From positions 24,131-88,130 of the forward strand of contig DYFA01000027.1 of the NCBI GenBank assembly GCA_020725425.1: a stretch of 64,000 nt of DNA, written 5' to 3'. The DNA comes from Aneurinibacillus sp. (GTDB lineage: Bacteria; Bacillota; UBA5301; DYFA01). A program made the translations under genes and the position numbers. The notes below the pieces were generated by a model that was not told where the DNA came from, did no database searches, and was given only the letters and a program-made list of their open reading frames with translations. This document shows positions 1 through 35,803 of the stretch, one piece after another; the stretch's first letter is position 1, and each line of letters starts with the position of its first letter.

Positions 1-37
1 CGGAAGTACCGAATCGTAATGGAAGTATTTACAGTCT

Positions 38-322
38 TTGAAGAGGATAAGCGCCCTTGCCCGAAACAAGTTCGGGGAGCAGACCAAAGGGGCGCTGCTC
101 ACCCTGCTGTCGACCCTCTTCCGGCGGGGGGACGTGGTCTGCCCGTGGGATTCTCGGTGGTGCCTCGTGCAACTGACGGGGATCGAGCAGAAAGCCGTCT
201 CGGTCGTCAAGCGCCGCCTGGAACGGGCTCTCAAGGGGCTGCCCTTCGTTCCTCCCACCCTCACCGTCCGGGTCGTCGAGCCGTCGGCCGAACCGGCTTC
301 CCTGGAAAACCTTCTCTCCTAG
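38..322 (+). CDS. Small hypothetical protein, possibly winged-helix-like
   Basis: TTG-initiated 94-aa ORF with a protein-like composition, near the window edge and in a lower-GC stretch. The other frame (19..345) reads as Arg/Pro-rich junk. No family recognised. Confidence 0.25.
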   Translation: MKRISALARNKFGEQTKGALLTLLSTLFRRGDVVCPWDSRWCLVQLTGIEQKAVSVVKRRLERALKGLPFVPPTLTVRVVEPSAEPASLENLLS

Positions 323-623
323 ACTCGAACGCCCCCTCTCTTTGAGATTCCTCTGAGAGTCAACAAGAGCCCCCCAAGTTACCGGGGCGAAAAGCTGCAG
401 TGAGGGGCAGTTCACCCTGGGCCGAGGAGTGGGAGAAATGTGAGACCGCTTTGAGAGTCGTCTGGCATAGTGTAGCTACCAGGCCTCACAGGCCTTCCCG
501 GAAGATGAATAAGTTGCCACCTGAGGTATTACACTAGAACCACTGCACTCGGATCGCTGTGCACCAAGCCGAGGGCTGACCGGGGCGCCGTTCCGGTGGG
601 CAAGGACAAAGAGGTGGAAGAAT

Positions 624-1949
624 GTGACCGGGTGGTGGGGGCGCCTCGTGAGAGCTTCAGCCGGGTCCCTGGCGACCTGGTTGATTTTCGCCCTGCTCCA
701 CGCCACCCCCGTTCAGGCCGGGGACCTCGGTCGCATCTTCCAGCGTGATCCGGTCACGGGCGCGTGGGTCCGGCTCCCGTCCGTCAACGACCTGGCCGTT
801 CTCACAAGCACCGGCGCTCCGGCCGGTGGCGCCTGCAATAATCAGAATCGGCCGACGCTCTTCACGAACCGAGTCAAGGTGGAAATGTCCGTGTCGAAGC
901 TCAGCGTCCCGACGCTCGCTTCCCCCGACGAGCTGGGGGCCAGGCCTGTGGACCTGACCTCGCCGGAACTGGGCACGACCAGCTCGGAGGTCACCTTCGT
1001 CGAGGACTTCCAGCCGCGGTCGCCGGCGATCAGTCTGCAGCCGGCCCAGTACGGCTACCTCGCCGGCTTCCGGGTCCCGGAGGACCTCCGGGTGGAATGG
1101 CAGGTGGTTCTGACAGTCAAGAACAACCTGGACGGGGAAATCACGGGCCTCACGGTGACTGAACACCTCAACGCGGAACTGGACTACCACCCGGACACGG
1201 TCAGCGTCACTTCGGGACTCCCAGCCCCGGTTTTCGAACGGAGCGGGAACTTGAAAGTGACTTGGACGATCCCTGGCCTGGGGCCGGGCGCCGAGGCCCG
1301 GCTGAGCTTCACCATCTACAGCCGGCTCAGGAACGCTCACCAGCAGTACAGCGAGCCCACGCCGCCGGAGGGGCCGCCCTACTTCCTGAACTCCGGAGCC
1401 ACCTTAAAGTATTACCGCCTGGGCGTGAAAAGCAGCTTGGAGTTGCCGGCGATCCCCGTCTGGGTCGAGGAGGGCGGATACCTCCGAGTGAGCCTGAGCG
1501 CCACCCGCTACGACTGGCAAGTCCGCAAGCCGGGTACCTTCGCCGCAGATCCGGTGGAGATCGGCGTGTACTCGAACAGAAAGGTGTCGGTGATCTTCAG
1601 CGGGTTTGCCGATTTAGCCGCTGTTTCGCCGGGTCATACGGGGGCCATACCCACCTTCTACGGGTTCGGGAACACGCTGGACGAGGTCGAGAACACGGGG
1701 TGGATACGTGCGCAGGACCTGAACGTCCGGCGGCTTGAGACTGCTGCTGCGGAAAGCGGGACGACTGCGGTGTGGAAGCTGTGGCCGAAACTGAAGGTCA
1801 GCGGGCGGGAGCGCGCCGGGGAATACGAGGATGTAGGCTGCCTGACCTTCATTCTTTGCGAGACCTCGGCTTACATAGAGACCCAGGATACCCTGCTTCG
1901 GACTTCACTGCTTGAGGGGGTGAACCTGCCTGATCCAGACCGACTTTGA
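624..1949 (+). CDS. Secreted protein with a DUF11-like repeat domain and a C-terminal domain paralogous to the next gene
   Basis: GTG start preceded by a GAGGTGG ribosome-binding site. N-terminal signal peptide. Mid-region motif VVLTVKNN..ITGLTVTEHL..TVSVTSG resembles DUF11/CARDB-like repeats. The C-terminal block (YDWQVRKPGTFAAD...FADLA...KLW) is shared with ORF 2045..2728. Confidence 0.6.
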   Translation: MTGWWGRLVRASAGSLATWLIFALLHATPVQAGDLGRIFQRDPVTGAWVRLPSVNDLAVLTSTGAPAGGACNNQNRPTLFTNRVKVEMSVSKLSVPTLASPDELGARPVDLTSPELGTTSSEVTFVEDFQPRSPAISLQPAQYGYLAGFRVPEDLRVEWQVVLTVKNNLDGEITGLTVTEHLNAELDYHPDTVSVTSGLPAPVFERSGNLKVTWTIPGLGPGAEARLSFTIYSRLRNAHQQYSEPTPPEGPPYFLNSGATLKYYRLGVKSSLELPAIPVWVEEGGYLRVSLSATRYDWQVRKPGTFAADPVEIGVYSNRKVSVIFSGFADLAAVSPGHTGAIPTFYGFGNTLDEVENTGWIRAQDLNVRRLETAAAESGTTAVWKLWPKLKVSGRERAGEYEDVGCLTFILCETSAYIETQDTLLRTSLLEGVNLPDPDRL

Positions 1950-2044
1950 CTCCTGATGCATGATCAAACCTTCTCGGAGGCTTTGGGAAGGGCCGCCGGA
2001 GGAGGGCACTAGGTGCAAGGGTAACAAGAAAAGGAGTGTTGAGA

Positions 2045-2728
2045 GGAATGAAGAAGGCCATTTTTGGGGCGATCTTGCTGGCATGCCTGCTTTCCGTGTC
2101 CACCGTCGCGCTGGCTGCTCTTCCTGGCCAGGTCACAGTCTATGTGCCTTCCGAAAACGGCTGGGCCGCGCTGAGCAAAGAGGATCCGGCCTCACTGGCG
2201 AGAGCGTTCACCTCCATCCCGGCCCTCAATAGGTCATGCGATAAGGCGACTTGGACAGAAACGTTCACCAACCATGCCTCAGTCACGCAATGGCTCAATT
2301 ACTCGTTTGCCGGAACCCGGTGGGACTGGCAGGTCCGGAAGCCGGGGATTTTCGCAGCGGACTGCATCTCGTTCACCATCCAGAGCAACGACGATGTAGT
2401 GGTGACCTTCGCTGATTTTGCTGACCTCGAGCCGCAGGTTCATGAGGGGGCGGCCCCGATTCCGGTCGCCTACAGCTTCGGCGACACCGTTGAGGATGCT
2501 ACGGCCAACGGCTGGGTACCGGCAGCAGAGCTCAACGAGAAGGAGATCACCTTGCCCTACGAAGTGGTCGCGGGCGGCGTGAATTACAAGCTGTGGAACA
2601 AGATCGTGGTCGACCAGACCACCCGCGCCTGCGACTACGAGGACAGCGGGACCATCACTATCGCGCTGACCGACGTCAAGCCGTTTGTCGATCCTGCGGA
2701 CGGCGAATACTGGGACCTCATCTACTAG
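2045..2728 (+). CDS. Small secreted protein made of the same domain as the C-terminus of the upstream gene
   Basis: ATG preceded by an AAGGAG ribosome-binding site. Signal peptide MKKAIFGAILLACLLSVSTVALA. Shares RWDWQVRKPGIFAAD, FADFADLEP, GW..A.ELN and YKLWNKIVV...YEDSG with the C-terminal domain of 624..1949. Confidence 0.6.
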   Translation, partial: GMKKAIFGAILLACLLSVSTVALAALPGQVTVYVPSENGWAALSKEDPASLARAFTSIPALNRSCDKATWTETFTNHASVTQWLNYSFAGTRWDWQVRKPGIFAADCISFTIQSNDDVVVTFADFADLEPQVHEGAAPIPVAYSFGDTVEDATANGWVPAAELNEKEITLPYEVVAGGVNYKLWNKIVVDQTTRACDYEDSGTITIALTDVKPFVDPADGEYWDLIY

Positions 2729-2809
2729 TGTCCCGGCTTCCCTTGTCCGGCGGCCCTTCCCAAGGCCTTTGAGACTGGAGTGACTTGGAGTGGAGGAGGA
2801 TATCAGAGG

Positions 2810-4525
2810 GTGACTTCAACCCGGCTATCGCGATGGATGCGTGCACTGTCAGTGTTGGCAATCATGTTGCTTACCACGTCGTCAGGGTTAGGGGCCGGCT
2901 TGAACCTGCAAATCAGTCCACCGATGGCGGAGTTGTTTCTTGAACCAGGCGGGGAGAGGTCTCTTGACGTAGCGATCGAGAACGCGAGCGAGAGCGAAGC
3001 GGCCAGCATCCGGACCCGGCTCTTGCCTGTCGTCCAAGAACGCAAAGGGAACTATCGGGTGGCGTCCGAGCAAGAGATTCCGCCAGGAACGGCATTATCC
3101 TGGTTCCAGTTCTCATCTGAACAGTTCACCCTTCCCCCACGGAGCGCCGAGTCGGTGAACGTGAAGGTCAAGCTCCCCCGAAACGCCAGCGGAAGCCAGG
3201 CGGCTGCGCTGGTCTTCGAAGTCCTGCCGGGGACTGGGCAGGGACGTTCGGAAGGGGCCGTAGGAGGCAGCACGACGTTTGTGCACCAACTCACTTCGAT
3301 TGTCAAAGTCACCGCGAACAGCAGGGCCAACCGGAAAGCCGCCTCCATCTCCGGTCTAGCTGTGGTCAATGGGGCATCCGACCAACGTTTCCGGTCTTAC
3401 GGCGAAGAAGCGCTCGCAGTGATCTGCTCCATCGCCAACGAGGGCAACGTCTTTGTCTCGAGCCAGGGACGCTTGCTCATCAGGAACGCCGCCGGGCGAC
3501 GCATCAAAGATCTTCCCCTCAGTGATGGACGGGGTGTCATATTGCCTGGTTCGACAGTGGACCTGGTGACGATTATTCCGAAGGGGCTGCCGGAGGGCGA
3601 CTATACTGCCGAAGTCTCTGTCCGCTACGGAGGACTCCGGCCGCTTCAGGCGAGGATGCCCTTTCACGTGGCTGGCAGGAAGGCCGCGGTTGGGGAGCCG
3701 CAGGTGGCCTCGACGGTCCGGCTATTGGTTGCTCCGGAGGAAGTTGGTACCCAGCTTCCTCAGGGGGCTTTCCGGGGTTTCACGTTCAGCCTGGCAAACC
3801 TGGACAAGAGCCCCGTACAGGTATGCGGGGCCATCAAAGGGTTGGAATCGGACGAGAATGGCGGACTCATACCGGTTGACGAGCCTTCGGGGCGGTGGTC
3901 GGCAGCAAGCTGGATCAGCCTGGAACAGCACGTCATCCGCCTGGGGCCGGGAGAGAAGAAAAACTTGCGCCTGACGGCCAGCGTTCCTAAGGAAGCAACC
4001 GACGGAACCCGTTATGCCATGCTGGTTTTGGAAGCGACGCTGGAACAGCAGGGAGAATCCGGCACGGTGACCACCATCAGCACTCCGATTGTCATCACCA
4101 CTGGCAAGAATCTGACCAGGAAGGCTGAACTCACAGACACCAGGATTGCCGTGATCGAAGAATCGGGATTGCTATTGGTCGGTGCTACTCTGAAGAACCA
4201 AGGCAACACCCACTTGGCGCCTTCCGGCAAGGTCGTCCTGCGGCGGCGGGGAGTCACCCCTGCCCTTTCGGGAGGGATCGAGTATCTCGGTGAAGCCAAA
4301 TTCGAAGACGTAGCGACCATCCCGTTGCAGGAGACATCAGGCTGGCTCCTTCCCGACCATGCGCGACCGGTCGCGGCGGTGTATGATAAGCCCCTCGAAC
4401 TGGGCGAGTACCAGGGGGAGATTATTGTCGATATCGGAGACAAGCTTCCGCTGAGGGCAACGGTAACGTTCATGGTCGCCCCCCAAGGGACGGACATGAG
4501 GAAGTCCCCGGGTTCCGCCAACTAG
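2810..4525 (+). CDS. Secreted protein with an internally duplicated beta-rich domain
   Basis: GTG at 2810 lies 9 nt after GGAGGAGGA. Signal peptide (TSTRLSRWMRALSVLAIMLLTTSSGLGAG). The two halves share the pattern S.QE..PGT..S.F.FS...FTLPPRSAESVNVKV / R..SVPKEATDGTRYAMLVLE. The family is unknown. Confidence 0.55.
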   Translation: MTSTRLSRWMRALSVLAIMLLTTSSGLGAGLNLQISPPMAELFLEPGGERSLDVAIENASESEAASIRTRLLPVVQERKGNYRVASEQEIPPGTALSWFQFSSEQFTLPPRSAESVNVKVKLPRNASGSQAAALVFEVLPGTGQGRSEGAVGGSTTFVHQLTSIVKVTANSRANRKAASISGLAVVNGASDQRFRSYGEEALAVICSIANEGNVFVSSQGRLLIRNAAGRRIKDLPLSDGRGVILPGSTVDLVTIIPKGLPEGDYTAEVSVRYGGLRPLQARMPFHVAGRKAAVGEPQVASTVRLLVAPEEVGTQLPQGAFRGFTFSLANLDKSPVQVCGAIKGLESDENGGLIPVDEPSGRWSAASWISLEQHVIRLGPGEKKNLRLTASVPKEATDGTRYAMLVLEATLEQQGESGTVTTISTPIVITTGKNLTRKAELTDTRIAVIEESGLLLVGATLKNQGNTHLAPSGKVVLRRRGVTPALSGGIEYLGEAKFEDVATIPLQETSGWLLPDHARPVAAVYDKPLELGEYQGEIIVDIGDKLPLRATVTFMVAPQGTDMRKSPGSAN

Positions 4526-4545
4526 CCAGAAAGGGTGAAAACAGA

Positions 4546-5808
4546 GTGAGAACTCATCGGGTTCACGCCGTATGGTGGATCTCCATCCTACTGATCGGGC
4601 TGGCGGCGGTGAGTGTAGGTGTCCGGGCGGAGCCCCCGGTGACAAACGTTTTCGACAACACGTTCTTGGTTGACGCGCTGCGCGATATTTCCGCCCAGAC
4701 CGGCGTTCCGATCGTCGCCGACTCAACGGTTCAGGGTCAGGTGACCATGACGCTGGAGAATGTCCCCTTGGAAGAGGCGCTCAACCGAGTGTTGGCCCCG
4801 GCAGGCTTGGTGTACCGCCGGATAAACGACTACTATCTGGTCGGTGCCCCAGATCCCAAGAACCCGTCTTTCCTTCTGCTTAGCCGCACGGAGACGGTGA
4901 AGATGCGCTACACCAAAGCGGGAAGTGCCGCCAGGCTTATATCGGACGCGGTCAGCCAGTATGTCAAAGTAGATGTCGACAACAACGCTCTCGTTCTGAC
5001 TGCTCCTGATCCCATTCTGACCCGGATCAAGGCAGACCTGGCAGTGATCGACCGGCCCATCCCGCAGATCATGATCGAAGCCCTGGTGGTGGACGTCTCA
5101 AACGAGGGACGCAAGAACCTCGGGCTCGATTGGGGATGGGAGCACAAGGGGATGGTACGTACCGACACTCCCCGGTCGGGTACGGCGGTCATGGAAGCAT
5201 TGGCGGCGAGCATCGGATACATTCCCGCCGGGGGATTGAACGAGTTTGTCGTAAAGCTCAAGGCGACGTGTGAAAAGGGCCAGGCCAAGATTGAGGCCAA
5301 CCCCCGGGTGGCGACGCTGGACGGCCAGACGGCGGAGATCTTCGTCGGGCGAGACCGGTACTACAACCTGACGACCGGCATCGAGACCAATATGACGGCC
5401 CGGCTCGAGTCGATCAAGACCGGGATCACGCTGAAGCTCCTCCCCCAGGTGGGCGACAACGGCGAGATCACCGTGCGGATCGAGCCGGAGGTCAGCGATG
5501 TGGTGGGCGACAGCACGACCAACGGGACCTACCCCGTGATCAGCCGCCGCAAGGTCAGCACGACGGTGCGGGTCAAGACGGGCGAGAGCATCGTGCTCGG
5601 CGGGCTATTGCAGAGAACGGAACACAAGGTTGTCACCCGGGTGCCGATCCTCGGTTACATCCCGGTCCTTAACCTCCTGTTCAGTTCGACCAAGACGGTT
5701 CAGGAGGAAGGAGAGGTGCTCATCGTCATCACGCCGTATCTGGTGGGCGGCCCGGATACGCCGTCGGGCCGGGTGCCGGTGCTCATGACCCCGTCAACCA
5801 CCAATTAG
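4546..5808 (+). CDS. Secretin-family outer-membrane channel (GspD/PilQ/CpaC-like, short form)
   Basis: Signal peptide and secretin N-domains (FLVDALRDISAQTGVPIV...VTMTLENVPLEEALNRVL). Canonical C-terminal secretin block IEANPRVATLDGQTAEIFVG...VSTTVRVKTGESIVLGGLL...VPILGYIPVLNLLFSS...VLIVITPYLV. Confidence 0.8.
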   Translation: MRTHRVHAVWWISILLIGLAAVSVGVRAEPPVTNVFDNTFLVDALRDISAQTGVPIVADSTVQGQVTMTLENVPLEEALNRVLAPAGLVYRRINDYYLVGAPDPKNPSFLLLSRTETVKMRYTKAGSAARLISDAVSQYVKVDVDNNALVLTAPDPILTRIKADLAVIDRPIPQIMIEALVVDVSNEGRKNLGLDWGWEHKGMVRTDTPRSGTAVMEALAASIGYIPAGGLNEFVVKLKATCEKGQAKIEANPRVATLDGQTAEIFVGRDRYYNLTTGIETNMTARLESIKTGITLKLLPQVGDNGEITVRIEPEVSDVVGDSTTNGTYPVISRRKVSTTVRVKTGESIVLGGLLQRTEHKVVTRVPILGYIPVLNLLFSSTKTVQEEGEVLIVITPYLVGGPDTPSGRVPVLMTPSTTN

Positions 5809-5905
5809 CCTCGCTCGAGATTGAGAGGATGGCGTCACCGGCGGGTGGCGGCGTCCTTTGTATCAATAACTTTACTCAAACTTTACACGCAAAGCAGGAA
5901 ACGGG

Positions 5906-6730
5906 GTGGCTCCGGCAAATACTCCGGTAATGCGGGCGGTGGAGGTGGGTGTGGTGGACGCCCCGGCGGTAGTCACTTTTTTGGTCGGGTGGCTTAAGCA
6001 GCAAGTCGAGGCGAGCAAGACGGAGGGAGTCGTCTTCGGTCTGTCCGGCGGAATTGACTCGGCGGTGGTGGGCGCTCTGTGTAAGCAGGCGGTCCCGGAA
6101 CGCTGCCAGGGGCTGATCATGCCGTGCCACTCCGACCCCCGCGACCGGGAGGACGCGCTGGCGGTCGCCCGGCTCTTCGGCATCCCCGTCCAGACGGTGG
6201 ACCTGAGCCCGGTCTACGACCTGCACCTGGCGGCGCTGCGCCAGAGCCTGGCGGCGGCAGAACAGGAGCAGGGGCCGGGGCTCGCGGTGGACAGGCGGGC
6301 CAGCCTCGCTGAGGCCAACCTGAAGCCGCGCTTACGGATGGCGACTCTCTACTTTTTCGCCAACAGCTTAAACTACCTGGTGGTAGGCACGGGGAACCGG
6401 AGCGAGCTGACCGTCGGGTACTTCACCAAGTACGGCGACGGCGGGGTGGACCTCCTGCCTCTCGGCAGCCTGGTCAAAACCCAGGTGCGCCAGCTGGCGG
6501 AGCATCTCGGCCTCCCGCGACGGGTGATCGACAAGCCTCCCTCAGCCGGCCTGTGGGAGGGGCAGACGGATGAGGGGGAGATGGGCACCTCCTACGCCGA
6601 GTTGGACCGGTACATCCTGGAGGGCGTGGCCGCTGGAGCAGTGCGGGCCAAGGTCGAGCGCATGAGCCGGGCGGCCGCGCACAAGCTGACCCTGCCGCTG
6701 ATTCCGGAACTGCCCGAGGAATTCTTGTAA
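5906..6730 (+). CDS. nadE: NH3-dependent NAD+ synthetase
   Basis: PP-loop motif VFGLSGGIDSAVV and typical NadE length and C-terminus. Confidence 0.85.
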   Translation: MAPANTPVMRAVEVGVVDAPAVVTFLVGWLKQQVEASKTEGVVFGLSGGIDSAVVGALCKQAVPERCQGLIMPCHSDPRDREDALAVARLFGIPVQTVDLSPVYDLHLAALRQSLAAAEQEQGPGLAVDRRASLAEANLKPRLRMATLYFFANSLNYLVVGTGNRSELTVGYFTKYGDGGVDLLPLGSLVKTQVRQLAEHLGLPRRVIDKPPSAGLWEGQTDEGEMGTSYAELDRYILEGVAAGAVRAKVERMSRAAAHKLTLPLIPELPEEFL

Positions 6731-6731
6731 A

Positions 6732-7691
6732 GTGAAGAAAGGGTTCATCTTCCCTATCCTCTCCGCGACTCTCTGGGGTTTCACCGGGACAGTTGCCAAG
6801 CTGCTCTTCCGAGGCACCACCAGCCCGTTGGCGCTGGTCGAAGTGAGGCTGACCCTCTCCGCCGCGCTGCTCGGGCTGTTCCTCGGTGTGGTGCAGCGCC
6901 GGCTGCTCCTTCTTTCGGCCCGGGACATCCCCTACTTCATAGTGTTGGGCGTGGCCGGCATGGCTGGCGTGCAGTTCACCTACCTCTTCACCATCAGTCA
7001 GACCACGGTGGCCACGGCGGTGTTCCTCCAGTCCCTCGCTCCCTCACTGATCTTCCTGCATGCCGCGCTCTTCAAGGGTGAACGGCTGACGGCGGGCAAG
7101 TTCACCGCGCTGGCCCTCACCCTCTGCGGGAGCATCCTGATGATCCAGGGCCGGGGCGGGGGGCGGGGGCTCTATCCCTGGGGGCTGGCCTCCGGCCTGG
7201 CGTCAGCCTTCTTTGCCGCCTTCTACACGATTTACAGCAAGCGCGCCCTGGCCCGCTACCATCCCCTGACGGTGAACTTCTGGGCGCTGGCGTTCGGGGC
7301 GGTGCCCTGGTGGTTCATCCTCCCGCCGGGACGCCTCCTGAGCGCGGGGTTCACCACCAACGACCTGTTCTTCTTCCTCTACATCGCCGTTTTCTCCACG
7401 GTGGTCCCCTTCACCCTCTACTTTCAGGGCCTGCGGGATCTGACGCCGGGGCAGGCAGGCATCATCTCCACCCTCGAGCCGGTGGTAGCCACTGCCACCG
7501 CCTATCTGGTGTTGGGGGAGCGACTGAGCCTGGCCCGGGGCACCGGCGGGGCCCTCGTCCTGCTTGGCATCTTGCTCCTCCGATTGCTTCCCTCAACAGA
7601 AGAGCTGCCCGCCGGGACGAGGCAGCGATTGAACAAGGAAGCCGGACTGACTGGCGGTCGGGCGATCAGGCGGGGAGAGAGGCGGCTGTAG
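6732..7691 (+). CDS. EamA/DMT-family membrane transporter
   Basis: About 10 predicted transmembrane helices in two EamA-like repeats. Confidence 0.65.
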   Translation: MKKGFIFPILSATLWGFTGTVAKLLFRGTTSPLALVEVRLTLSAALLGLFLGVVQRRLLLLSARDIPYFIVLGVAGMAGVQFTYLFTISQTTVATAVFLQSLAPSLIFLHAALFKGERLTAGKFTALALTLCGSILMIQGRGGGRGLYPWGLASGLASAFFAAFYTIYSKRALARYHPLTVNFWALAFGAVPWWFILPPGRLLSAGFTTNDLFFFLYIAVFSTVVPFTLYFQGLRDLTPGQAGIISTLEPVVATATAYLVLGERLSLARGTGGALVLLGILLLRLLPSTEELPAGTRQRLNKEAGLTGGRAIRRGERRL

Positions 7692-8109
7692 TGAAGTCGA
7701 GGACTTTCTCCAGATCGAGCACGATGACGAGGCGCTCATCGATCTTGGCGACACCCTTGATGAAGGCCGCGTCCACGCCGGAGGCGCTCTCCGGAGGGAG
7801 GTCGATCGCCGCCTCGTCCAGGCGCAGGACTTCGGTAACTGCATCCACCACGAAGCCCGCGATTTCTCCCTTGAGCTCACTCACCACGATGCGGGTTGCG
7901 TCATCGTTGGTCTCTTTGGGAAAGCCGAACCGCTGGCGCAGGCTGATGACGGGGATGATCTTGCCCCGCAGGTTGATAATCCCCAGGACGCTGGGCGGGG
8001 CCTTCGGGATAGCGGTGATGGGCACAAGGCGGATGATCTCCCGCACCTGGGCGATGGGCACCCCGAAGTCTTCCCCTGCCAGGTTGAACACGACGAGCTG
8101 AATCTCCAT
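7666..8109 (-). CDS. cheW: Chemotaxis coupling protein CheW
   Basis: Full CheW domain (MEIQLVVFNLAGEDFGVPIAQVREIIRLVPITAIPKAP..LGIINLRGKIIPVISL). ATG at 8109 is preceded by AAGGGGGG. The track ORF extends further 5' to 8202 without support. Confidence 0.85.
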   Translation of the reverse strand: MEIQLVVFNLAGEDFGVPIAQVREIIRLVPITAIPKAPPSVLGIINLRGKIIPVISLRQRFGFPKETNDDATRIVVSELKGEIAGFVVDAVTEVLRLDEAAIDLPPESASGVDAAFIKGVAKIDERLVIVLDLEKVLDFTTAASLPA

Positions 8110-8273
8110 GACGGCCCCCCCCCTTACTTGAGGGAGATTAAACGGCCACAGGCAAAATCCTGCGCGGCGGTGACCCGTTCTAGCCCTGCTGCTCCCTGCC
8201 AACGGAGGGCCAATCTACCGGCAGGAGGCCGTTGGCGGGAGCGCCAATAAAGAAAGGGAGAGGAGTTGCAGCC

Positions 8274-8954
8274 ATGAGTCGCAGCATCGTTCACCGCTTT
8301 CTCCTCGCCTCCGCGGTGTTGCTCTGTCTCGCCTTTCCGGCCACTCCGGCCGCGGCCGCCCCGGAGACCCCGGAGGTCCGCCGCGGTCACGGCGTCCTCG
8401 CCTTTACTGCCTTCACCCAGTCCGGCGAGGTCTTTCCCGAGCCCAGCCTGGAATTCGGCCCAGCCGTGGAGTATGGCCTGACCGATCGGGCAGCCGTGCG
8501 GGCCTTCTGGCACGAGCAAAGGTACAACGATCCGCGCTCCCGGGACAGCCGCCTGGCTGATCTCGGGCTCAAGTACGAAGTCACTCCGGACCTCGCCGTG
8601 GAGGGCTTCGTCGAATCCAACTGGGACGATCGCAACTCCGCGACCGTCTATGGCTTCGGGTTGTTTGCCGGAAAGCAGTTCGGGCGGGCGTACGGATCAG
8701 TTCGGTGGCAGGCTCTCGCGCTTCCCTACCTGGGAGAATACTACTGGTACGACCAGCTCGCGGCCACCGGGAGCTACGCCCTGACTCCCCAGCTCAACTT
8801 CCTCGGCGGTGTCACGGCCACCCTCGACGTGGGGATCGACTGGCGCGGTTCGTACGGCCTGGAGTGGCAGCCCGATTCAAACTGGGCAATATGCGTGAGC
8901 CGCTTCACCGACCGCCGCGACCTCACCCAGCTTGGGGTGGAGTACCGCTTCTAG
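8274..8954 (+). CDS. Putative outer-membrane beta-barrel protein
   Basis: ATG after an AAAGGGAGAGGAG ribosome-binding site, followed by a signal peptide. The alternating hydrophobic pattern and C-terminal ...LGVEYRF (terminal Phe) are typical of outer-membrane barrels. Confidence 0.45.
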   Translation: MSRSIVHRFLLASAVLLCLAFPATPAAAAPETPEVRRGHGVLAFTAFTQSGEVFPEPSLEFGPAVEYGLTDRAAVRAFWHEQRYNDPRSRDSRLADLGLKYEVTPDLAVEGFVESNWDDRNSATVYGFGLFAGKQFGRAYGSVRWQALALPYLGEYYWYDQLAATGSYALTPQLNFLGGVTATLDVGIDWRGSYGLEWQPDSNWAICVSRFTDRRDLTQLGVEYRF

Positions 8955-8989
8955 TCCCGCCGGCGCCCAGTCCTGGACGATCAAGGACT

Positions 8990-9409
8990 CTACGCCACTG
9001 GCACCCGGACCACGAGCCGCGCCGGCCCCTGCTGCTCGGTGCGGGCCGCCTCCGGACGGACCCGGGCCGGCAGGGGGACAGTCCGGTAGAAAGTCCGGTA
9101 GCACTGGGTGTGGTCCTGCCGGGTCTCCGCTTCGCCCCGGACAGTCAGGTAGTCGGCTGAGACGCTGACTTCCAGGCTGTCCGGCCGCGCCCCGGGGATT
9201 TCCACGGTGGCGACGACCTCCTGCCCCCTTCGTTCCGCCTCGATCCGGGGGAAGAACTCGTTCAGCTTCAGGGGGGCCCCGGCGCTCTCGGCCGCTCTGA
9301 CGACCGCCGCCATGGTCTGGGAGAACAGCCGGTCGAGCTCCTGCCAGAGGCGGGTGAAGCCCAGGTCCAGGGGGTCCGGGTTCTGCGGACCCTTGGCGAG
9401 TTCGCCCAT
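8990..9409 (-). CDS. Small heat shock protein, Hsp20/alpha-crystallin family
   Basis: Alpha-crystallin domain (EAERRGQEVVATVEIPGARPDSLEVSVSADYLTVRGE...). ATG at 9409 is preceded by GGGGAGGTGAG. Confidence 0.85.
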   Translation of the reverse strand: MGELAKGPQNPDPLDLGFTRLWQELDRLFSQTMAAVVRAAESAGAPLKLNEFFPRIEAERRGQEVVATVEIPGARPDSLEVSVSADYLTVRGEAETRQDHTQCYRTFYRTVPLPARVRPEAARTEQQGPARLVVRVPVA

Positions 9410-9540
9410 CTGACTCACCTCCCCGCTCGCTAGCATCTTATGCCCCGGTAGTGAGCCGGTTCTAGGAGGCAGGCCGGGCTTCGTGCTTGTCACCCTTCTG
9501 GCGCCTCTCATATCATGAGACGAAAAGGGGAGGGAGTGCC

Positions 9541-10167
9541 GTGAGCGTCAGGGTCTTTCTCGGCGGCAGTGAGCTCCTGGGACTCCGGCATCCGAGCTAC
9601 GCCGACCCGCTTATCGCCGTCTGCCAGGCCGCGGGACTGGACTTCACCTACCGGCCGGACCTGGAGTGCCTCTTTATCGCCTCGCCGGTGGCCGGCGCCC
9701 TTGTGGCGTTGAAGGTGGAGGAGCCCTCCTCCGGGACCCTGCGGCGCCGGTTAACCGCTTTGTTGCGCGGGGCGGGCGCTCAGGTGGTCTCGGAAGTCGG
9801 GCTGATCGGCCGGCGCTACGGTGACGTGGCGTTGCGTCTGGTGGTGGAGGAGGGCCGGCGGGTGACCGAGATCCGTTATCCTCTGGGGAGTGCCTTATCC
9901 CGCATCCTGGCTTGTGGGGTGGCCAGGGCACTCGACCAAGCCGGCCTGCCGGTCGAGGCGCCCCGGGGCGAGTTCGCCGGCTTCGGCCGACGGGTGCCGT
10001 TGGCCCGCGTAAGGGTGGCAGAAGCGGCACCGCCCGTTGCGGCGGACCTGTACGCCCAGGGCCTGTTCCTCGGCATAACCCGCTTTCTGTGGTGGCGATC
10101 GTTGGCGCGATGCCGGGAGCGGCAGGCCGAGGCCGTACAGAGGGGGGTGAACGCCCCCCTGTCGTAG
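9541..10167 (+). CDS. Hypothetical protein
   Basis: GTG after an AAAAGGGGAGGGAG ribosome-binding site, with protein-like composition. No family recognised. Confidence 0.4.
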   Translation: MSVRVFLGGSELLGLRHPSYADPLIAVCQAAGLDFTYRPDLECLFIASPVAGALVALKVEEPSSGTLRRRLTALLRGAGAQVVSEVGLIGRRYGDVALRLVVEEGRRVTEIRYPLGSALSRILACGVARALDQAGLPVEAPRGEFAGFGRRVPLARVRVAEAAPPVAADLYAQGLFLGITRFLWWRSLARCRERQAEAVQRGVNAPLS

Positions 10168-10183
10168 CGCGGCGAAGGAAACC

Positions 10184-10764
10184 ATGGGCTCCCGTGGAAG
10201 TATTCGCGGCAAAGCTGCGCAAGCGAGGCAGTCGATGGGAGGTACGAGGGTGAGACGGTGGAGAGAGTGGAGCGCGAGAGTAGCAGCGGCTCTTCTGCTG
10301 CTCTCGATGCTGGTCCCGACGGCGCTGGCGGGAGACACGGGGCTCAGCGTGGCGGTCATGGACTTTGAGGACGCGTGGAGCGGACCCGGCTCGAGCAGAT
10401 CATGAAGGAGCAGAACTTCCAAGCGGGCACTGCGGTGGATGAGTCCACCGCGGTGCAGCTCGGAAGGGTGTTGGGCGTGCGGCTCATGGTCCTGGGCGCC
10501 GTGACGGAGTTCAACGTGAGAGGGATCAGCGGGCTGTCGGTCGGCAACATTGGACTGGGTGTGCAGACCGCCTCGGCCAAGGTGTCGGCTCGCTTGGTGG
10601 ACGTCCAGACTGGAGAGATCCTTGCCGCGGTGAAAGGTGAAGGCAACGCCTCCGGCGGGGCGGGCGCCATCAAGGTGGTGAGTGTGGATCCGGCGGCCTC
10701 CGTGGCCACCGTTTCAGAGTCCCAGGATGAGATCCAGGTAGGGGATGTGGTCGAGACTGAGTAA
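10184..10764 (+). pseudogene. Disrupted CsgG/TolB-N-like periplasmic protein gene (frameshifted, possibly internally deleted)
   Basis: Two overlapping ORFs in different frames (10184..10405 and 10375..10764) together encode a signal peptide, LSVAVMDFED, then LEQIMKEQNFQ...LGVRLMVLGAVTEF. This is a CsgG-like motif order, but about 40 residues between the motifs are missing. Confidence 0.4.
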
Positions 10765-10812
10765 CCGGTCCCTGCCCTGGCGGGGCGTTGGGTCGGGTAG
10801 GAGACCGGGCGG

Positions 10813-11460
10813 TCAGCGCAGGTACGGGGTGAAAAGAAGCCAGGTGAGCGGGAGATCCACTGCCGCGACCGCCAGAATCCCGGCGTAGGAAGAGGAGAGG
10901 CGCCGGTCCTGCCGCAAGGAGACGGCGGCCCAAACCCCGAGGGCAAAGAAAGCGGTCGAGATGAGCCAGCCCACGGGTAGGGGAGCGAGCCAAGCCGGCA
11001 GGAGCGAGCGGACGGTGACCTCGTAGAAGGTGCGTCTCAGAAGCAGCGTTTTGCCGATCAGATAGGAAGCGAGGCCCAGGTTCATCACTGCCCGATCGTG
11101 GTGTTCTACCCAGGTCAGAGCTACCGCGGAGATGACAGTCACGACCGCCACGGTCAAGAGCACTGTAGCTGGGATGTAGTACAGCGCCAGGAAGAAGGAG
11201 AAGAGACCCAAGGCAGTGCCGGTCAGCGCTTCCCACAGATCCGCCGGAGCGAGGCGGTTATAGCGGCGGAAGGCGGTCCCGGTACCGGTGACCGAGATCC
11301 GGTAGCGGCCGAACCCGGCGCTCTCCGTGAAGCACAGGATCCGCTCTCCCTCCGTTCCGGCCAGGGTGGGTTGGAGAACCGCCCCGGTGGCCCGGGAGGC
11401 GAAGGCCGGCGCGGTCAATCCGTCAGGCCGCAGCGTTGCGGTGAAGGCTTGAAAGCTCAC
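10813..11460 (-). CDS. C-terminal part of a split membrane-anchored protein (about 4 transmembrane helices)
   Basis: Protein-like N-terminus (ATGAVLQPTLAGTEGERILCF) and C-terminal transmembrane helices. Its upstream reading frame continues in-frame to about 11556, overlapping the end of 11423..12196. Confidence 0.45.
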   Translation of the reverse strand: MSFQAFTATLRPDGLTAPAFASRATGAVLQPTLAGTEGERILCFTESAGFGRYRISVTGTGTAFRRYNRLAPADLWEALTGTALGLFSFFLALYYIPATVLLTVAVVTVISAVALTWVEHHDRAVMNLGLASYLIGKTLLLRRTFYEVTVRSLLPAWLAPLPVGWLISTAFFALGVWAAVSLRQDRRLSSSYAGILAVAAVDLPLTWLLFTPYLR

Positions 11461-12196
11461 CCCGTGGCGGCCGGAGACTTTCCCTGTGCCGGCGGCCTCG
11501 AGGTGTTCGCCGCCGGACGGTGGCCAGCTCCTGAGTGGCCAGGAGAAGGCTGGTCACTCTGGGCTTGTGCTGCTGCCAGAGAGTAAGGCAGTACAGGTTG
11601 GTCCGGTCGAACCCCACCTGAAGGCTGGCCAGTGACCGGCCCAGCGTGGTGAGGGACCCGAGGGAGTCGAGCTTGACCCCGCCGGGGGCGCTTTCGGGAA
11701 ACAGGACGGCGTGCCAGAGCGCCAGCTCTCCGGACCGGTCGGGCACAGCGAGCGCCAGGTGAAGCTCGCCGGCGGCCGCCACTGCCACCGTCCCGGCCGG
11801 GAGGCTGTACTGGGTGACCACCCGGCCAGACGGATCGAGCACGGCTCCGCCCGCTCCTCCGGGACTCACCCAGAAGAAGGCGCCGCTCCCGGCACCCCCG
11901 ACCACTTCTCCGGCGGGGCTGGCGCCCTCGATGAACCCCTGGCGGAGGACCCGCCCGTCGGGCGCGAGCCGGGCGAAGCGCACGGAATCTCCGGCCGCCC
12001 AGGCGAGGAGATAACCTTCACCCCTCAGGGTCTCCACTGCCACTGGCGTGTTGAGATCCGTCTCCCCCACGCGTACCGATCGGCTCCAGGCAGGCGACGG
12101 GGGAGAGACCACCCGCTGCAGTTCCTCGCTGAAGTGAAGGCCAGTGACTGCCAGGACCGTCAACCCCACCACCGCGACCCACGGTTTCATGCCCAT
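11423..12196 (-). CDS. N-terminal part of a split exported protein
   Basis: ATG at 12196 gives signal peptide MKPWVAVVGLTVLAVTGL. The last 40 residues are Arg-rich and look out-of-frame. This is probably one gene with 10813..11460, split by a frameshift. Confidence 0.45.
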   Translation of the reverse strand: MGMKPWVAVVGLTVLAVTGLHFSEELQRVVSPPSPAWSRSVRVGETDLNTPVAVETLRGEGYLLAWAAGDSVRFARLAPDGRVLRQGFIEGASPAGEVVGGAGSGAFFWVSPGGAGGAVLDPSGRVVTQYSLPAGTVAVAAAGELHLALAVPDRSGELALWHAVLFPESAPGGVKLDSLGSLTTLGRSLASLQVGFDRTNLYCLTLWQQHKPRVTSLLLATQELATVRRRTPRGRRHRESLRPPRGELSSLHRNAAA

Positions 12197-22215: not shown

Positions 22216-24111
22216 ATGGTTATTCTGCTTCTGGTCGCCATCCCGCTGGCGGCGGGGTTGTTCACGCTGATCGGCGGGGCGTGGACGAGATACGTCGCCG
22301 TGGGTGGGGCCGTCCTGTCGCTTCTCTCGGGGGCAGCCCTCGTTCTGGCGCACGGCCGCCTCGCCCTGGATGCCGCCACCCTCCTCGGCGGCTTCCGTCC
22401 CGGCCCGCTCTTCGGGATTCTCGATGCCCTGCTCCTGGCCTACATCGGCCTGACCGGCTGGCGGCTGCGGCACCTCCTCCTCACCCTGCTTGCCTTGGTA
22501 CAACTGGCTGGGATCCTCTACCTCGAAGGGGTGCCCCGGCCCGAAGCCGGCCGCTTCGTCGTGGACGGGCTCTCGGCAGTGATGGTGCTCGTCGTCTCCG
22601 TCGTGGGTTCGCTGGTGGCCCTCTTCAGCCTCCCCTACATGCGGGAGTACGAGCGGCACGCCCAGGGCACGGCGGGACCCAGGCGCTTTTTCGCCGTGCT
22701 CCTCGCTTTCCTCGGCCTCATGAACGGCCTCGTCCTGGCCGATGACCTTCACTGGGTCTACTTCTTCTGGGAGGCGACCACCCTTGCCTCATTCCTGCTC
22801 ATCTCCCATCCGCAGTCGGGCGACGCCGTCCCCAACGCGGCCTATGCGCTGACGGTCAACTCGCTCGGAGGCGTGGCCTTCGTCGGCGCTCTGGTCCTGC
22901 TCGCGGGGCGGGGAGAAGCGTCCCTCGAACAGCTCGCGGCGACACCGCCTGCTCCCGGAATCCTCGTGCCGCTGGGGCTGCTCCTCTTCGCCGCCTTCAT
23001 CAAGGCCGCCCAGTTCCCCTTCCAGCGCTGGCTCACCGCGGCCATGGTGGCCCCCACCCCGGTCTCAGCCCTCCTCCACTCCAGCACCATGGTGAAGGCC
23101 GCCGTCTACCTCGTCCTTCGCCTGGCGCCGGCCTTCCGCGGCACACCCCTGGCGCTGGCGGCCGCCGTCTACGGGGCCTTCTCCTTCTTCGCCGGTTCGG
23201 CCACAGCCATCGGACAGGCCAACGGAAAGAAGGTGCTGGCCTACTCGACCATCGCCAACCTGGGGCTCATCATCGCCTGCGCCGGTGTGGGGACGACCGG
23301 CGCCCTCGCCGCCGCGATCCTCCTGGTCCTCTTCCACGCCGCCACCAAGGCGCTCCTCTTCCTCTGCGTGGGGACGATCGAGCACGGCATCGGCACCCGC
23401 AACATCGAGGAGATGGAAGGGGTCATGTGGAAGATGCCGGTGACGACGGTCCTAACCGTTCTCGCCATGCTGGCGATGGTGGTCCCCCCCTTCGGCATGC
23501 TGATCGGAAAGTGGCTGGCGATCGAATCGAGCGTCCGGACCCCGCTGGTCCTGGCCTTCGTCGTCTTCGGCTCCGCTTTCACTCTCGTCTTCTGGTCCAA
23601 GTGGATCGGCCGGATTCTCACCGTCTCCTACCACCGGAAGTTCCGCTGGGAGCGCCTGCCCGTCCTCCTCCGCCTTCCCAAGCTCCTGCTCCTTTTGGCC
23701 GTCTTCTCTGGGAGCATCGGCGTGGCGCCCCTCTACAACCGGCTCGTCCGGCCGGTGATCGTCGACCAGTTCGACGCCCGGGGCTTTGTCCGAACCGGCG
23801 GGGGAGGACTGACCACCGGCTTCGGGGATTTCCTGCCGTGGCCCATTTTCCTGGTCATCCTGGGAGTGCTGCTGCTCCTCCTCGTCATGGTCGGCCGACT
23901 CGAACCGGAGGACGCCCGACCGCCGTATCTTTGCGGAGAGAACGCCGACCAGAAGCCGGGAACGTCCTTCCACACCGCCCGGGACGAGGTGGAGATCGCT
24001 GAGACAGGCAACTTCTACCTGGAGTCGGTCTTCGGCGAGGGAATGGTGCGCCAGTGGGCCGACCCGCTAGCCCTGGCGATCCTGTTGCTGATGGTGGGGT
24101 TCCTGCGGTAA
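22216..24111 (+). CDS. echA: Ech-type hydrogenase membrane subunit (NuoL/MnhA antiporter-like; EchA/HyfB-like)
   Basis: 631-aa polytopic protein of the complex I antiporter-subunit family. First gene of an ech-like operon. Confidence 0.75.
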   Translation: MVILLLVAIPLAAGLFTLIGGAWTRYVAVGGAVLSLLSGAALVLAHGRLALDAATLLGGFRPGPLFGILDALLLAYIGLTGWRLRHLLLTLLALVQLAGILYLEGVPRPEAGRFVVDGLSAVMVLVVSVVGSLVALFSLPYMREYERHAQGTAGPRRFFAVLLAFLGLMNGLVLADDLHWVYFFWEATTLASFLLISHPQSGDAVPNAAYALTVNSLGGVAFVGALVLLAGRGEASLEQLAATPPAPGILVPLGLLLFAAFIKAAQFPFQRWLTAAMVAPTPVSALLHSSTMVKAAVYLVLRLAPAFRGTPLALAAAVYGAFSFFAGSATAIGQANGKKVLAYSTIANLGLIIACAGVGTTGALAAAILLVLFHAATKALLFLCVGTIEHGIGTRNIEEMEGVMWKMPVTTVLTVLAMLAMVVPPFGMLIGKWLAIESSVRTPLVLAFVVFGSAFTLVFWSKWIGRILTVSYHRKFRWERLPVLLRLPKLLLLLAVFSGSIGVAPLYNRLVRPVIVDQFDARGFVRTGGGGLTTGFGDFLPWPIFLVILGVLLLLLVMVGRLEPEDARPPYLCGENADQKPGTSFHTARDEVEIAETGNFYLESVFGEGMVRQWADPLALAILLLMVGFLR

Positions 24112-33342: not shown

Positions 33343-33448
33343 GGAGGGGAGCCAGCCGAGTCGAGGTCACAGGTTGAGTGGAGAAGAGACGAGCAAAGAG
33401 CAGGCAGGACCCGTTCAGGTCTGACTCTTTGGAGTCGGGCCGTTTTTG
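33343..33448 (+). promoter_or_regulatory. trp leader attenuator: GAG-triplet array followed by an intrinsic terminator
   Basis: Nine GAG triplets at 33343, 33348, 33357, 33362, 33375, 33380, 33385, 33390 and 33397, mostly 2-nt spaced. These are followed by the nested hairpin GACCCG..GACUCuuugGAGUC..GGGCC and then UUUUUGUU. Confidence 0.45.
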
Positions 33449-33484
33449 TTACCTCGTCCTTCTCCCGCCCCGGAGGTGGGAAAG

Positions 33485-35803
33485 GTGTCCGCAGACTTGT
33501 CCGTCCTGCGGGAGTCGCTTCCGCTCGTCACCGCCCCGCACCCGGAGAGGGTCCGGATAAGGTTAGGGGAGGTGGTCGCCGGCGGCCCGGTCCCGGTGGT
33601 CATCGCCGGCCCCTGCGCCGTGGAGAGCCTGGCGCAGCTCCTCCAGACCGCCCGGCAGGTCAAGGCCGCCGGCGCCCACGGCTTGCGCGGCGGCGCCTTC
33701 AAGCCCCGCAGTTCCCCCTACAGCTTCCAAGGTTTGGGTCGGCCAGCTCTGGAGATGTTGGCCGCGGCCAAGGTCGAGACGGGTCTCTTCCTGACCATCG
33801 AGGTGATGCGGGAGGCTGAGGTCGACCTGGTGGCCGACTACGCCGACCTGCTCCAGATCGGCGCCCGGAACATGCAGAACTTCGCCCTGCTGCGGGCCGT
33901 GGGAAGGTGCCCCCGCCCGGTGCTGCTCAAGCGGGGGATGGCCGCCACTGTCCGGGAGTGGCTGCAGGCCGCGGAGTACATCCTTGCGGAAGGGAACCCC
34001 AGCGTCATCCTTTGCGAGCGCGGAATCCGCACCTTCGAACCGTGGACCCGCAATACCTTCGATGTCGCCGCTATCTCCCTGGTGCGCAACCTGTCCGGAC
34101 TGCCGGTCTTCGCCGACCCCAGCCACGCCGCCGGCCGGCGGGAACTCGTTCCCCCTCTGGCCCGGGCCGCTCTGGCGGCGGGGGCCGACGGCCTCCTGCT
34201 CGAGGTTCATCCCGATCCGTCGAGGGCGCTCTCCGACGGCGACCAGTCGCTCACCCTGGAGGAGTTCGCAAACCTGATGCGCGGCCTGGCCCCGTTCTGC
34301 GCCGGCCGGGAGCCGGTTTCCCGCAGGAGCCGGCCGGCGGGGATCAGCCCGGCAGCCGGTGAGTTCCCGGAACTGGCGGCCCGCGGCTACCGCCACGCCC
34401 CGGTCTTCACCCAGTTCACCAGCGACGAGCTTACGCCGGTGGGGATTTTCCGTCGCCTGGTGCATCAGGGGCCCGGCTTCCTCTTGGAAAGCGTGGAGTC
34501 CGGGGGAAACGGAGTCGGCCGGTACTCCTTCTGCGGTGACCGCCCGCTCCTGACCCTGACCGCCCGGGGCCGCCGCCTGGAGCAGAAGGGGCCCGGCCGG
34601 CTCGAGGAGGCGTCGGAGGGCGACGTCCTGGACCGGCTGCGCGAGCTCCTGGAGGTGTTCCGCGTGGCGCCGGTCGAGGGGTTACCCCGCTTCTACGGGG
34701 GAGCCGTGGGCTATTTGGGCTACGACTACGTACAGGCGTTGGAACCCATCCCTGCGACCGCCCCGGACCCGCTGGGGCTGCCGGACTCCTTCTGGCTGGT
34801 GCCGGAGCGACTCGTGGTCCTGGACCACGTCACCGGCGCGGTGACAGTGATCATCCTGGCGCCGACGGACCGGGAGGGGTACGAACGGGCCTCATCCCTC
34901 CTCGAGGCCACCCTCGCCGAACTGCGCCAACCGTGCCCGGCGCGGGAAGCGAAGCCGGAACCAGCTGGAGCCCTCCTCTCTTCGGTCTCCCAGGCGGAGT
35001 TCTGCACGGCCGTGACGAAGGCCAAAGAGTACATCGCCGGGGGTGACGCCTTCCAGGTGGTGCTCTCCCGGCGGCTGACCACCCCCTACGCCGGCGACGC
35101 CGTTGAGCTGTACCGGGCCCTGCGCTCCGAGAACCCTTCGCCCTACCTGTTCCTCCTCGACTGCGGCGGTTTCCACCTGGTCGGCTCCTCCCCGGAGATG
35201 CTGGTGCGCCTGGAGGGAACTACGGCCGAGATCCGCCCGCTGGCAGGGACCAGGCCTCGGGGCCGGGACAGCGAGGCCGACCGGGCCCTTGAGGCGGAAT
35301 TGCGGGCTGACGCCAAGGAGTGCGCCGAGCACGTCATGCTGGTGGACTTGGGCCGTAACGACCTGGGGCGGGTCTGCCGGTTCGGGAGCGTTCAAGTGCC
35401 GGAGTTGATGGGGGTGGAGCGGTTCTCCCGGGTGATGCACCTCGTCTCCCGCGTCACCGGCGAGCTGGCGCCGGGCCAGGACGCCTTTTCGCTGCTCAAG
35501 GCGGTCTTCCCCGCCGGGACGCTGACCGGCGCCCCGAAGGTGCGGGCGATGCAGCTCATCGCCGAACTGGAGCCCTTCCAACGCGGCATCTACGGCGGGG
35601 CGGTGGGGTACGTCGGGTTCAACGGCAGTCTGGACGCCTGCATCGCCATCCGCACGGCGGTCCTCTGCGACGGCCGGGTCAGCGTGCAGGCCGGAGCGGG
35701 GATCGTCGCCGACTCCGACCCGGAGCGGGAGTACGCCGAGACGGCCCACAAGGCGGCGGCCGTTCTCGCCGCCGTCCGCCGGGCGCAGGAGGGACGGTCA
35801 TGA
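33485..35803 (+). CDS. trpE: Fusion protein: DAHP synthase (class I-beta, AroG/KdsA-like) + anthranilate synthase component I (TrpE)
   Basis: N-terminal [10 protein letters not shown]...[19 protein letters not shown]...IGARNMQNF...LLKRG...[10 protein letters not shown]...[10 protein letters not shown] matches the unadorned I-beta DAHP synthase core. A roughly 30-aa linker is followed by the TrpE body (LLESVESGG...GRYSF...[15 protein letters not shown]). One continuous ORF. GTG at 33485 after GGAGGTG. Confidence 0.85.

Follow-up and report, generated by a model that had tools for sequence, protein, structure and literature searches.

A conserved four-gene cassette of a short secretin and three secreted beta-rich proteins: a candidate secretin-dependent export and surface-assembly module in Bacillota and other lineages

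The WxL clusters of Gram-positive bacteria encode a small WxL protein that consists of the WxL domain only, a large WxL protein in which this domain stands C-terminally after variable adhesin domains, and the protein WxLIP (PMC9772566, PMC10599100). AlphaFold2 predicts that a strand of WxLIP fills a gap in the WxL sandwich (PMC9772566, PMC10599100), and WxLIP is thought to be a surface protein holding WxL in place (PMC10599100). Here, we analyzed a 64,000-nucleotide stretch of contig DYFA01000027.1 (positions 24,131 to 88,130 of the forward strand), referred to as the window. At positions 624-5808 it carries four open reading frames (ORFs), all on the + strand, which encode two secreted proteins with a common domain (P1, the large, and P2, the small one), a duplicated immunoglobulin (Ig)-like protein (P3) and a short secretin. 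The pairing of a small and a large secreted protein that share a C-terminal domain with one protein built from Ig pairs recalls the WxL cluster, and in gene content this cassette may be regarded as its diderm counterpart. The two nevertheless differ in several respects. WxLIP (DUF916 plus DUF3324) is a single Ig pair with a transmembrane helix, whereas P3 has four domains and no helix; the cassette adds a secretin as an integral fourth gene and contains no LPxTG protein; and WxL clusters belong to Lactobacillales and Bacillales, monoderm bacteria with exposed peptidoglycan, whereas the hosts of the cassette are diderm or presumed to be so.

To compare the cassette across genomes, loci were gathered by exact-protein look-ups, one genome scan and one metagenome scan and scored with hidden Markov models (HMMs) built from the cassette proteins. 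The locus scans used our alignments A3 and A6 because of the excessive diversity of A4 and A5. In the window and in loci L002-L039 the genes follow one order on one strand: a larger protein ending in the shared domain, a small domain protein (~230-265 aa), a P3-like protein (543-600 aa) and a secretin (~410-475 aa, longer in L029 (541 aa) and Zixibacteria RBG-1 (770 aa)). In the first seven cassettes that we inspected, the shared domain was present in both upstream genes. Among the 19 distinct loci that reach at least 1.2 kb past P3, the secretin gene comes directly after P3 in 18, and the two genes often overlap by a few nucleotides. Three loci (L024, L027 and L028) have a half-size P3 paralogue in place of the gene for the large protein. 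The secretins are 42-72% identical to that of the window and the P3 proteins diverge in parallel (27-60%). Hosts named in the records are Bacillota/Firmicutes metagenome-assembled genomes (MAGs), two Zixibacteria and two Ignavibacteria(les), accompanied by metagenome contigs. Cassette-bearing records include CP070674.1, a complete genome, as well as AUYT01000001.1, GCA_030019095.1 and GCA_023512195.1. Homologues of P1, P2 and P3 are rare; they keep the same order and immediately precede a gene for a secretin of this subfamily, and the genes flanking the cassette vary from locus to locus. Unrelated surface proteins found without secretins elsewhere, which an earlier note on this DNA had named as one of the outcomes that would speak against its reading, were not what we observed; the three proteins are not scattered, and the four genes behave as one inherited unit.

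The fourth product belongs to the secretin superfamily (PF00263), with a pore domain, an N0/STN domain, one N domain and a signal peptide without lipobox. Pfam assigns Secretin (E 1.1e-42) and STN (E 2.4e-10) above their cut-offs, and Secretin_N at E 2.5e-5, where 24.8 bits fall just below the 28.2-bit cut-off. The earlier description of a 420-aa secretin with canonical N-domains and core was thus borne out for the pore and STN, but only below threshold for Secretin_N. Against the NCBIfam subfamily models the protein stays under every cut-off, scoring 175.5 versus 284.35 for PilQ, 164.8 versus 351.35 bits for GspD (TIGR02517), 127.6 versus 554 for HofQ, 132.6 versus 238.45 for SctC and 118.1 versus 250.2 for MshL. 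Its best PDB sequence matches are the pore domains of PilQ and GspD (E ~1e-29), followed by pIV (7ofh) and RcpA (8odn). It also aligns at residues 36-397 of 420 with PHROG 1012, the M13 pIV family (E 2.4e-47), a full-length match that reflects a common minimal architecture, in which N0 and a single N domain precede the pore. Judged by these comparisons, it is a genuine secretin without a subfamily assignment. The 770-aa secretin of Zixibacteria RBG-1 (L002 12449-14761; also in L014 and L033) begins with a ~390-aa N-terminal extension that weakly matches a FadL/Toluene_X barrel (E 2e-5) and continues with N0, N and secretin domains; this protein may represent the fusion of a secretin with a further outer-membrane domain.

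P1 and P2 are related through a beta-sandwich domain. The P1 C-terminus (residues 286-422) aligned with P2 residues 86-222 by BLASTP at 36% identity (E 2e-28), which confirms the earlier view of P2 as a small paralogue of that domain. A profile of the P2 family matched P1 at residues 46-87 and again at 286-424, and the stretch at ~46-87 corresponds to the P2 N-terminus. Since both P1 ends align with the P2 family, P1 can be read as a P2-like protein with an insertion of ~200 aa. This insertion holds a weak DUF11-like domain that remains below the Pfam threshold (E 0.0031, 18.2 bits versus a cut-off of 24.6), while the P1 orthologue in L006 passes with 25.9 bits. The proposal of a DUF11-like protein with an extra C-terminal domain therefore holds for the latter part, and its DUF11 label is weak in P1 itself. 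P2 consists of a signal peptide and a single copy of the shared domain, with a conserved GTRWDWxVRKPG motif and two conserved cysteines that, as we see it, could form a disulfide. Its AlphaFold2 model is all-beta (mean confidence score, pLDDT, 72.9).

Pfam contains no family for the shared domain, and 57 diverse members all remained without an assignment. The P2-family profile matched no PDB sequence, and Foldseek returned no PDB structure for P2 at E <= 1e-3; matches weaker than this include carbohydrate-binding modules and the Epf adhesin. Word-indexed searches of 5.8 billion proteins yielded 11 clusters for P2 and 7 for P3, and a third one with the A4 profile added four proteins only. An exhaustive profile search of 1.84 billion proteins gave 369 representative clusters at E <= 1e-3, of which 286 also passed E <= 1e-10, so that the domain comprises at least 369 clusters at 50% identity. 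It was found neither in 2.9 million viral contigs nor in plasmids.

P3 consists of a signal peptide and four Ig-like beta-sandwich domains arranged as a tandem repeat of a two-domain module that may correspond to that of WxLIP and PapD. Loops of low confidence lie in domain 1 (~residues 152-167, counted in the 581-aa ORF) and in domain 3, and are candidates for a strand that enters the subunits. The two halves match each other at E 3e-11, in line with the internally duplicated, beta-rich protein described before. The C-terminus is hydrophilic, and P3 carries no transmembrane helix or other membrane anchor and no lipobox. Its two-domain match to periplasmic PapD-type chaperones equals many other matches in quality. 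Additional half-size P3 paralogues (~280-294 aa) stand upstream of some cassettes (L009 5805-6689, L024 2235-3077, L027 178-1020). Distant relatives of P3, half-size only, occur on Deinococcus megaplasmids. In L040 (Deinococcus sp. D7000 plasmid CP058536.1, 79362-87723) a 300-aa protein of this type matched the P3 HMM at E 2.8e-23 and, weakly, WxLIP_PGBD; its neighbours are hypothetical secreted proteins, one of them a 1018-aa SdrD_B/Ig-rich protein, and a protein with a SARP-regulator-like N-terminus, recognized by eye and without a Pfam match. L040 contains neither a secretin nor the shared domain and may be a related surface cluster.

Set against described secretin systems, the cassette stands apart. 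GspD of the type II secretion system (T2SS) and PilQ of type IV pili (T4P) resemble its secretin in the pore domain, yet the cassette protein lacks their extra N domains, AMIN domains and S-domain, and no GspC-M, PilMNOP, ATPase or (pseudo)pilin gene lies near. The minimal secretins pIV of filamentous phages, HofQ and RcpA have the same size (~420 aa) and the same order of N0, one N domain and pore, but the cassette secretin comes without phage, Tad or competence genes and travels with P3 and two domain proteins. In its logic the cassette resembles the chaperone-usher systems (Fim, Pap and the archaic Csu and CupE), the secretin standing where an usher would be expected; an usher gene (PF00577) was not found at the loci with Pfam calls. 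The strand insertion that we propose for P3 would correspond to the donor-strand complementation of PapD-type chaperones. No Pfam WxL model matched the 57 members of the shared-domain family at E <= 1, and no WxL chain was among the fold-search matches, whose libraries may hold no solved WxL chain; PDB entry 9i25 has EfmWxLIP1 as its chain C and may include WxL as well. By these comparisons the cassette does not qualify as a T2SS, T4P, Tad or type III secretion system (T3SS), nor as an inovirus export, WxL or chaperone-usher locus in the strict sense.

Taking these observations together, we propose a self-contained, Sec-dependent and secretin-gated export and assembly cassette, a reading to which we would give about an even chance. 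All four products would cross the inner membrane via Sec. P1 and P2 would act as paralogous beta-sandwich subunits, P2 as the bare domain and P1 as the same domain with a variable display region. P3, as two PapD/WxLIP-like two-domain modules in tandem with one module per subunit gene, would escort the subunits in the periplasm and bind them there, probably via a beta-strand inserted into their sandwich; this role is suggested by the gene content, which mirrors the WxL cluster, and by the resemblance of P3 to PapD-type chaperones. P3 would then pass the subunits on to the short secretin, their dedicated channel, at its N0 domain, and they would cross the outer membrane through its pore to form an adhesive complex or a short fibre on the surface, with the variable region of P1 displayed. 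The earlier suggestion of an undescribed secretin-dependent export or surface-assembly module is supported in so far as neither a known machine upstream nor a scattered occurrence of the three proteins was found; what we observed are the gene set with its strict order and conservation, the identity of the secretin, the P3 fold and the lack of ATPase and pilin genes nearby, whereas export itself, like every step after Sec, the binding of subunits by P3, a mode of action without an ATPase and the kind of product that is finally formed, is what we infer from the gene set.

Several points weigh against this proposal. To our knowledge, all secretins characterised so far, be they from T2SS, T3SS, T4P, Tad or filamentous phages, act together with an ATP-driven inner-membrane platform, and the source genomes are MAGs covered at the loci only, so that a partner machine could be encoded elsewhere. 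At the level of sequence, the cassette could be linked neither to WxL nor to the classical parts of chaperone-usher systems, the Pfam WxL and fimbrial models matching 0 of the 57 shared-domain proteins. Using profiles built from five E. coli K-12 fimbrial operons as references, hhalign gave a probability of 5% for P3 against the chaperones and of 18% for P2 against the pilins. P3 is also without the transmembrane helix of WxLIP. The one exception among the 19 loci, L035, has a domain protein and P3 with no adjacent secretin, and the Deinococcus cluster likewise combines a half-size P3-like protein with the absence of a secretin. Finally, all members are known as genes, and it is from these that the whole proposal is drawn.

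The absence of a motor near the cassette could also mean that the system is split, with the secretin serving a T2SS, T4P or competence machine encoded elsewhere and P1, P2 and P3 being its cargo or accessory proteins. As far as is known, characterised secretins all need an inner-membrane motor, the closest sequence matches are PilQ and GspD, and the search of the genomes was confined to the loci. Against this stand the scores far below the PilQ and GspD cut-offs, the missing extra N and AMIN domains, and a distinct group that always travels with P3; moreover, no GspE/PilB-type ATPase, platform protein, pilin, prepilin peptidase or usher gene was found within 10 kb at loci with precomputed Pfam calls, the rest of the genomes not having been searched. 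We consider a split system unlikely. The same verdict applies to a purely structural role of P3, in which all three proteins would pass or stay on the secretin as an adhesive or glycan-binding platform like that of WxL clusters, with neither a fibre nor donor-strand exchange. As such, a structural role is equally compatible with the data: WxLIP offers the precedent of a presumed surface protein (PMC10599100), the P2 fold matches include carbohydrate-binding modules and the Epf adhesin, cyclic di-GMP (c-di-GMP) or cyclic nucleotide (cNMP) signalling genes adjoin several cassettes, and two tandem modules matching two subunit genes would suit a platform too. Against this version, P3 has no membrane anchor or lipobox, and its match to two-domain PapD-type chaperones is as good as many others.

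Far less probable is a filamentous prophage remnant, in which the secretin would be a pIV-type protein for virion export and its neighbours phage or cargo genes. The PHROG 1012 match extends over the full length, with the same layout and size, and the G+C content of the cassette lies below that of its flanks; nevertheless, P1, P2, P3 and the adjoining 94-aa ORF are without a PHROG match, genes for a Zot/pI-type ATPase, for replication or for an integrase were not found nearby, the shared domain is missing from the viral contigs and plasmids searched, and the cassette sits among housekeeping genes in three phyla. As no phage gene accompanies the secretin, a prophage origin was rejected. That unrelated secreted proteins came to stand beside an orphan secretin by chance is highly improbable: in ~20 distinct loci, which represent three phyla or more, the gene order is identical, the genes are tightly spaced and the proteins diverge in parallel.

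Coordinates within the window are given in Table 1. Four co-directional genes with good ribosome-binding sites (RBSs) had been reported for this region, and our ORF analysis agrees. Upstream of P1, P2 and the secretin lie purine-rich sites (AGAGGTGG, AAGGAG and AGGGTG, respectively), Sec-type signal peptides stand at the start of all four products, and no product carries a lipobox or prepilin motif. For P2, a GTG at 2036 is an alternative start (2036-2728, 230 aa); the ATG at 2048 is the likelier one because it fits the MKK N-termini of the family. The start of P3 is most likely GTG 2810, which comes 9 nt after a Shine-Dalgarno-like run, GGAGTGGAGGAGGA, at 2788-2800. Homologues of 543-577 aa favour this long form, as the earlier note did in giving the third gene 571 aa. 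The call deposited at NCBI (456 aa, 3155-4525) begins ~115 codons late, and in view of the homologue lengths and the strong RBS it is N-terminally truncated. The secretin gene starts 20 nt past the P3 stop codon.

Table 1 Features of the secretin cassette and its 5' region in the window.
Feature	Position (nt)	Strand	Length or residues	Basis and remarks
Non-coding stretch 5' of P1	323..623	+	300 nt	No ORF of coding-type composition
P1, 'large' subunit (proposed)	624..1949	+	441 aa	ORF, RBS, signal peptide
P1, weak DUF11-like Ig domain	1107-1316	+	residues 162-231	Pfam, sub-threshold
P1, C-terminal shared domain	1479-1895	+	residues 286-424	Family profile
P2, 'small' subunit (proposed)	2048..2728	+	226 aa	From ATG 2048; ORF, alignments A1 and A5
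P3	2810..4525	+	571 aa	From GTG 2810; ORF opens at 2780
P3, four domains (approximate)	2906-3316, 3341-3688, 3722-4102, 4124-4477	+		
Short secretin	4546..5808	+	420 aa	Pfam
Secretin, N0/STN domain	4711-4848	+		Pfam
Secretin, Secretin_N domain (one copy)	4888-5067	+		Below Pfam cut-off
Secretin, pore domain	5272-5745	+		Pfam

The non-coding stretch in front of P1 presumably is the promoter or regulatory region of the cassette. Scans for promoters and terminators gave matches at chance level and no element within it, and Rfam returned no family for window positions 1-7000. The cassette has a G+C content of 0.59-0.62 and a G+C content at third codon positions of 0.69-0.81, compared to 0.65-0.69 and 0.82-0.92 in its surroundings (window 1-6000 versus 6000-12000); horizontal acquisition, or the composition of secreted beta-rich proteins, could account for the lower values. 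Directly 5' of the cassette, positions 38-322 (+) hold a 94-aa ORF of coding-type composition. In the syntenic locus L006 a full-length GGDEF gene takes the equivalent position, and the ORF, which shows a weak alignment (E 0.31) to the GGDEF-motif part of this gene, may be a degenerate remnant. As a member of the cassette it was dropped, being not conserved in the other loci and only weakly similar to this part of a GGDEF protein.

Regulatory genes recur beside the cassettes. BTAD/SARP-type regulators stand upstream in three Bacillota-type loci (L009 4408-5643, L011 6398-7642, L037 6195-7448), and GGDEF, HD-GYP, HDOD or Crp-type genes lie beside others (L006 5061-6218, L005 13922-15451, L013 12523-13356, L038 15569-19943, L002 8344-8994). 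They may indicate dedicated or second-messenger control, and they fit an adhesion or biofilm role only loosely.

In the window, the gene 3' of the secretin is nadE, as stated before (Pfam E 5.6e-72), and an EamA transporter is among the cassette neighbours. The region upstream of window position 1 was read on the matching contig JASEFQ010000020.1 (GCA_030019095.1). This record has 53,382 bases, and the window begins near its position 24,045, so that the final ~34.7 kb of the window lie beyond it; the same sequence also exists in a 115-kb assembly. The genes upstream of position 1 are those of a NiFe hydrogenase, which form an operon on the other strand, a small gene and one for a glycosyltransferase; T2SS, T4P, Tad or inovirus genes are missing there. 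Further along, 20 large ORFs of the window belong to metabolism or housekeeping. The 64 kb contain no pilin, no ATPase, no prepilin-type motif or N-terminus and no second copy of a cassette gene, and GspE, GspF, pseudopilins and prepilin peptidase are missing from locus L001, the other flanks and these 20 ORFs, the rest of the genome not having been searched. The earlier statement that pilins and an ATPase are absent from the 5.8 kb agrees with this. At window positions 33446-35803 (+), a single ORF encodes a 785-aa protein with a DAHP synthase domain (residues 42-277) and anthranilate-synthase-I N-terminal and chorismate-binding domains (327-769); it is unusual for the enzyme of the first shikimate-pathway step to be fused with one that uses chorismate.

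The genome had been called Firmicutes-like, in agreement with the NCBI label 'Bacillota bacterium' of the source MAG. Since some Bacillota lineages possess an outer membrane, which we presume for the source MAG too, finding a secretin in such a genome is not odd in itself. A 240-aa signal-peptide protein at window positions 8232-8954 (+) ends in ...EYRF, a beta-barrel-like terminus, and has no Pfam match, and a small CsgG-domain gene lies near (L001 15830-16219). Both are hints at an outer membrane in the host.

Full-text literature searches returned no description of such a secretin cassette, which may be seen as combining secretin-dependent export with a surface cluster of the WxL/WxLIP type. 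A secretin whose only partners are two subunits and a chaperone-like Ig protein would represent another use of this channel, akin to the energy-free principle of chaperone-usher systems, and if the cassette is truly ATPase-free, it would constitute a new class of secretin system. We put forward tentatively, and as something more likely to prove wrong than right, an ATPase-free chaperone-secretin pathway in which a doubled PapD/WxLIP-like periplasmic chaperone supplies a minimal secretin with two beta-sandwich subunits, their folding or their polymerisation by strand exchange powers the passage and yields a surface fibre or adhesin, and the Gram-positive WxL/WxLIP clusters derive from the same ancestral module after the secretin was lost together with the outer membrane. 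With only four genes, heterologous reconstitution of the cassette would be a direct test. Uncultured Zixibacteria, Ignavibacteria and Bacillota that carry the shared domain come from sediments, sludge and bioreactors, and on this account the domain is probably the mark of an adhesion or biofilm structure common in these lineages. If the proposed pathway and its ancestry are true, they would explain what the WxL/WxLIP clusters of enterococci, listeriae and lactobacilli, so far poorly understood, do and how they evolved, and would tie these clusters to the diderm-to-monoderm transition in Firmicutes.

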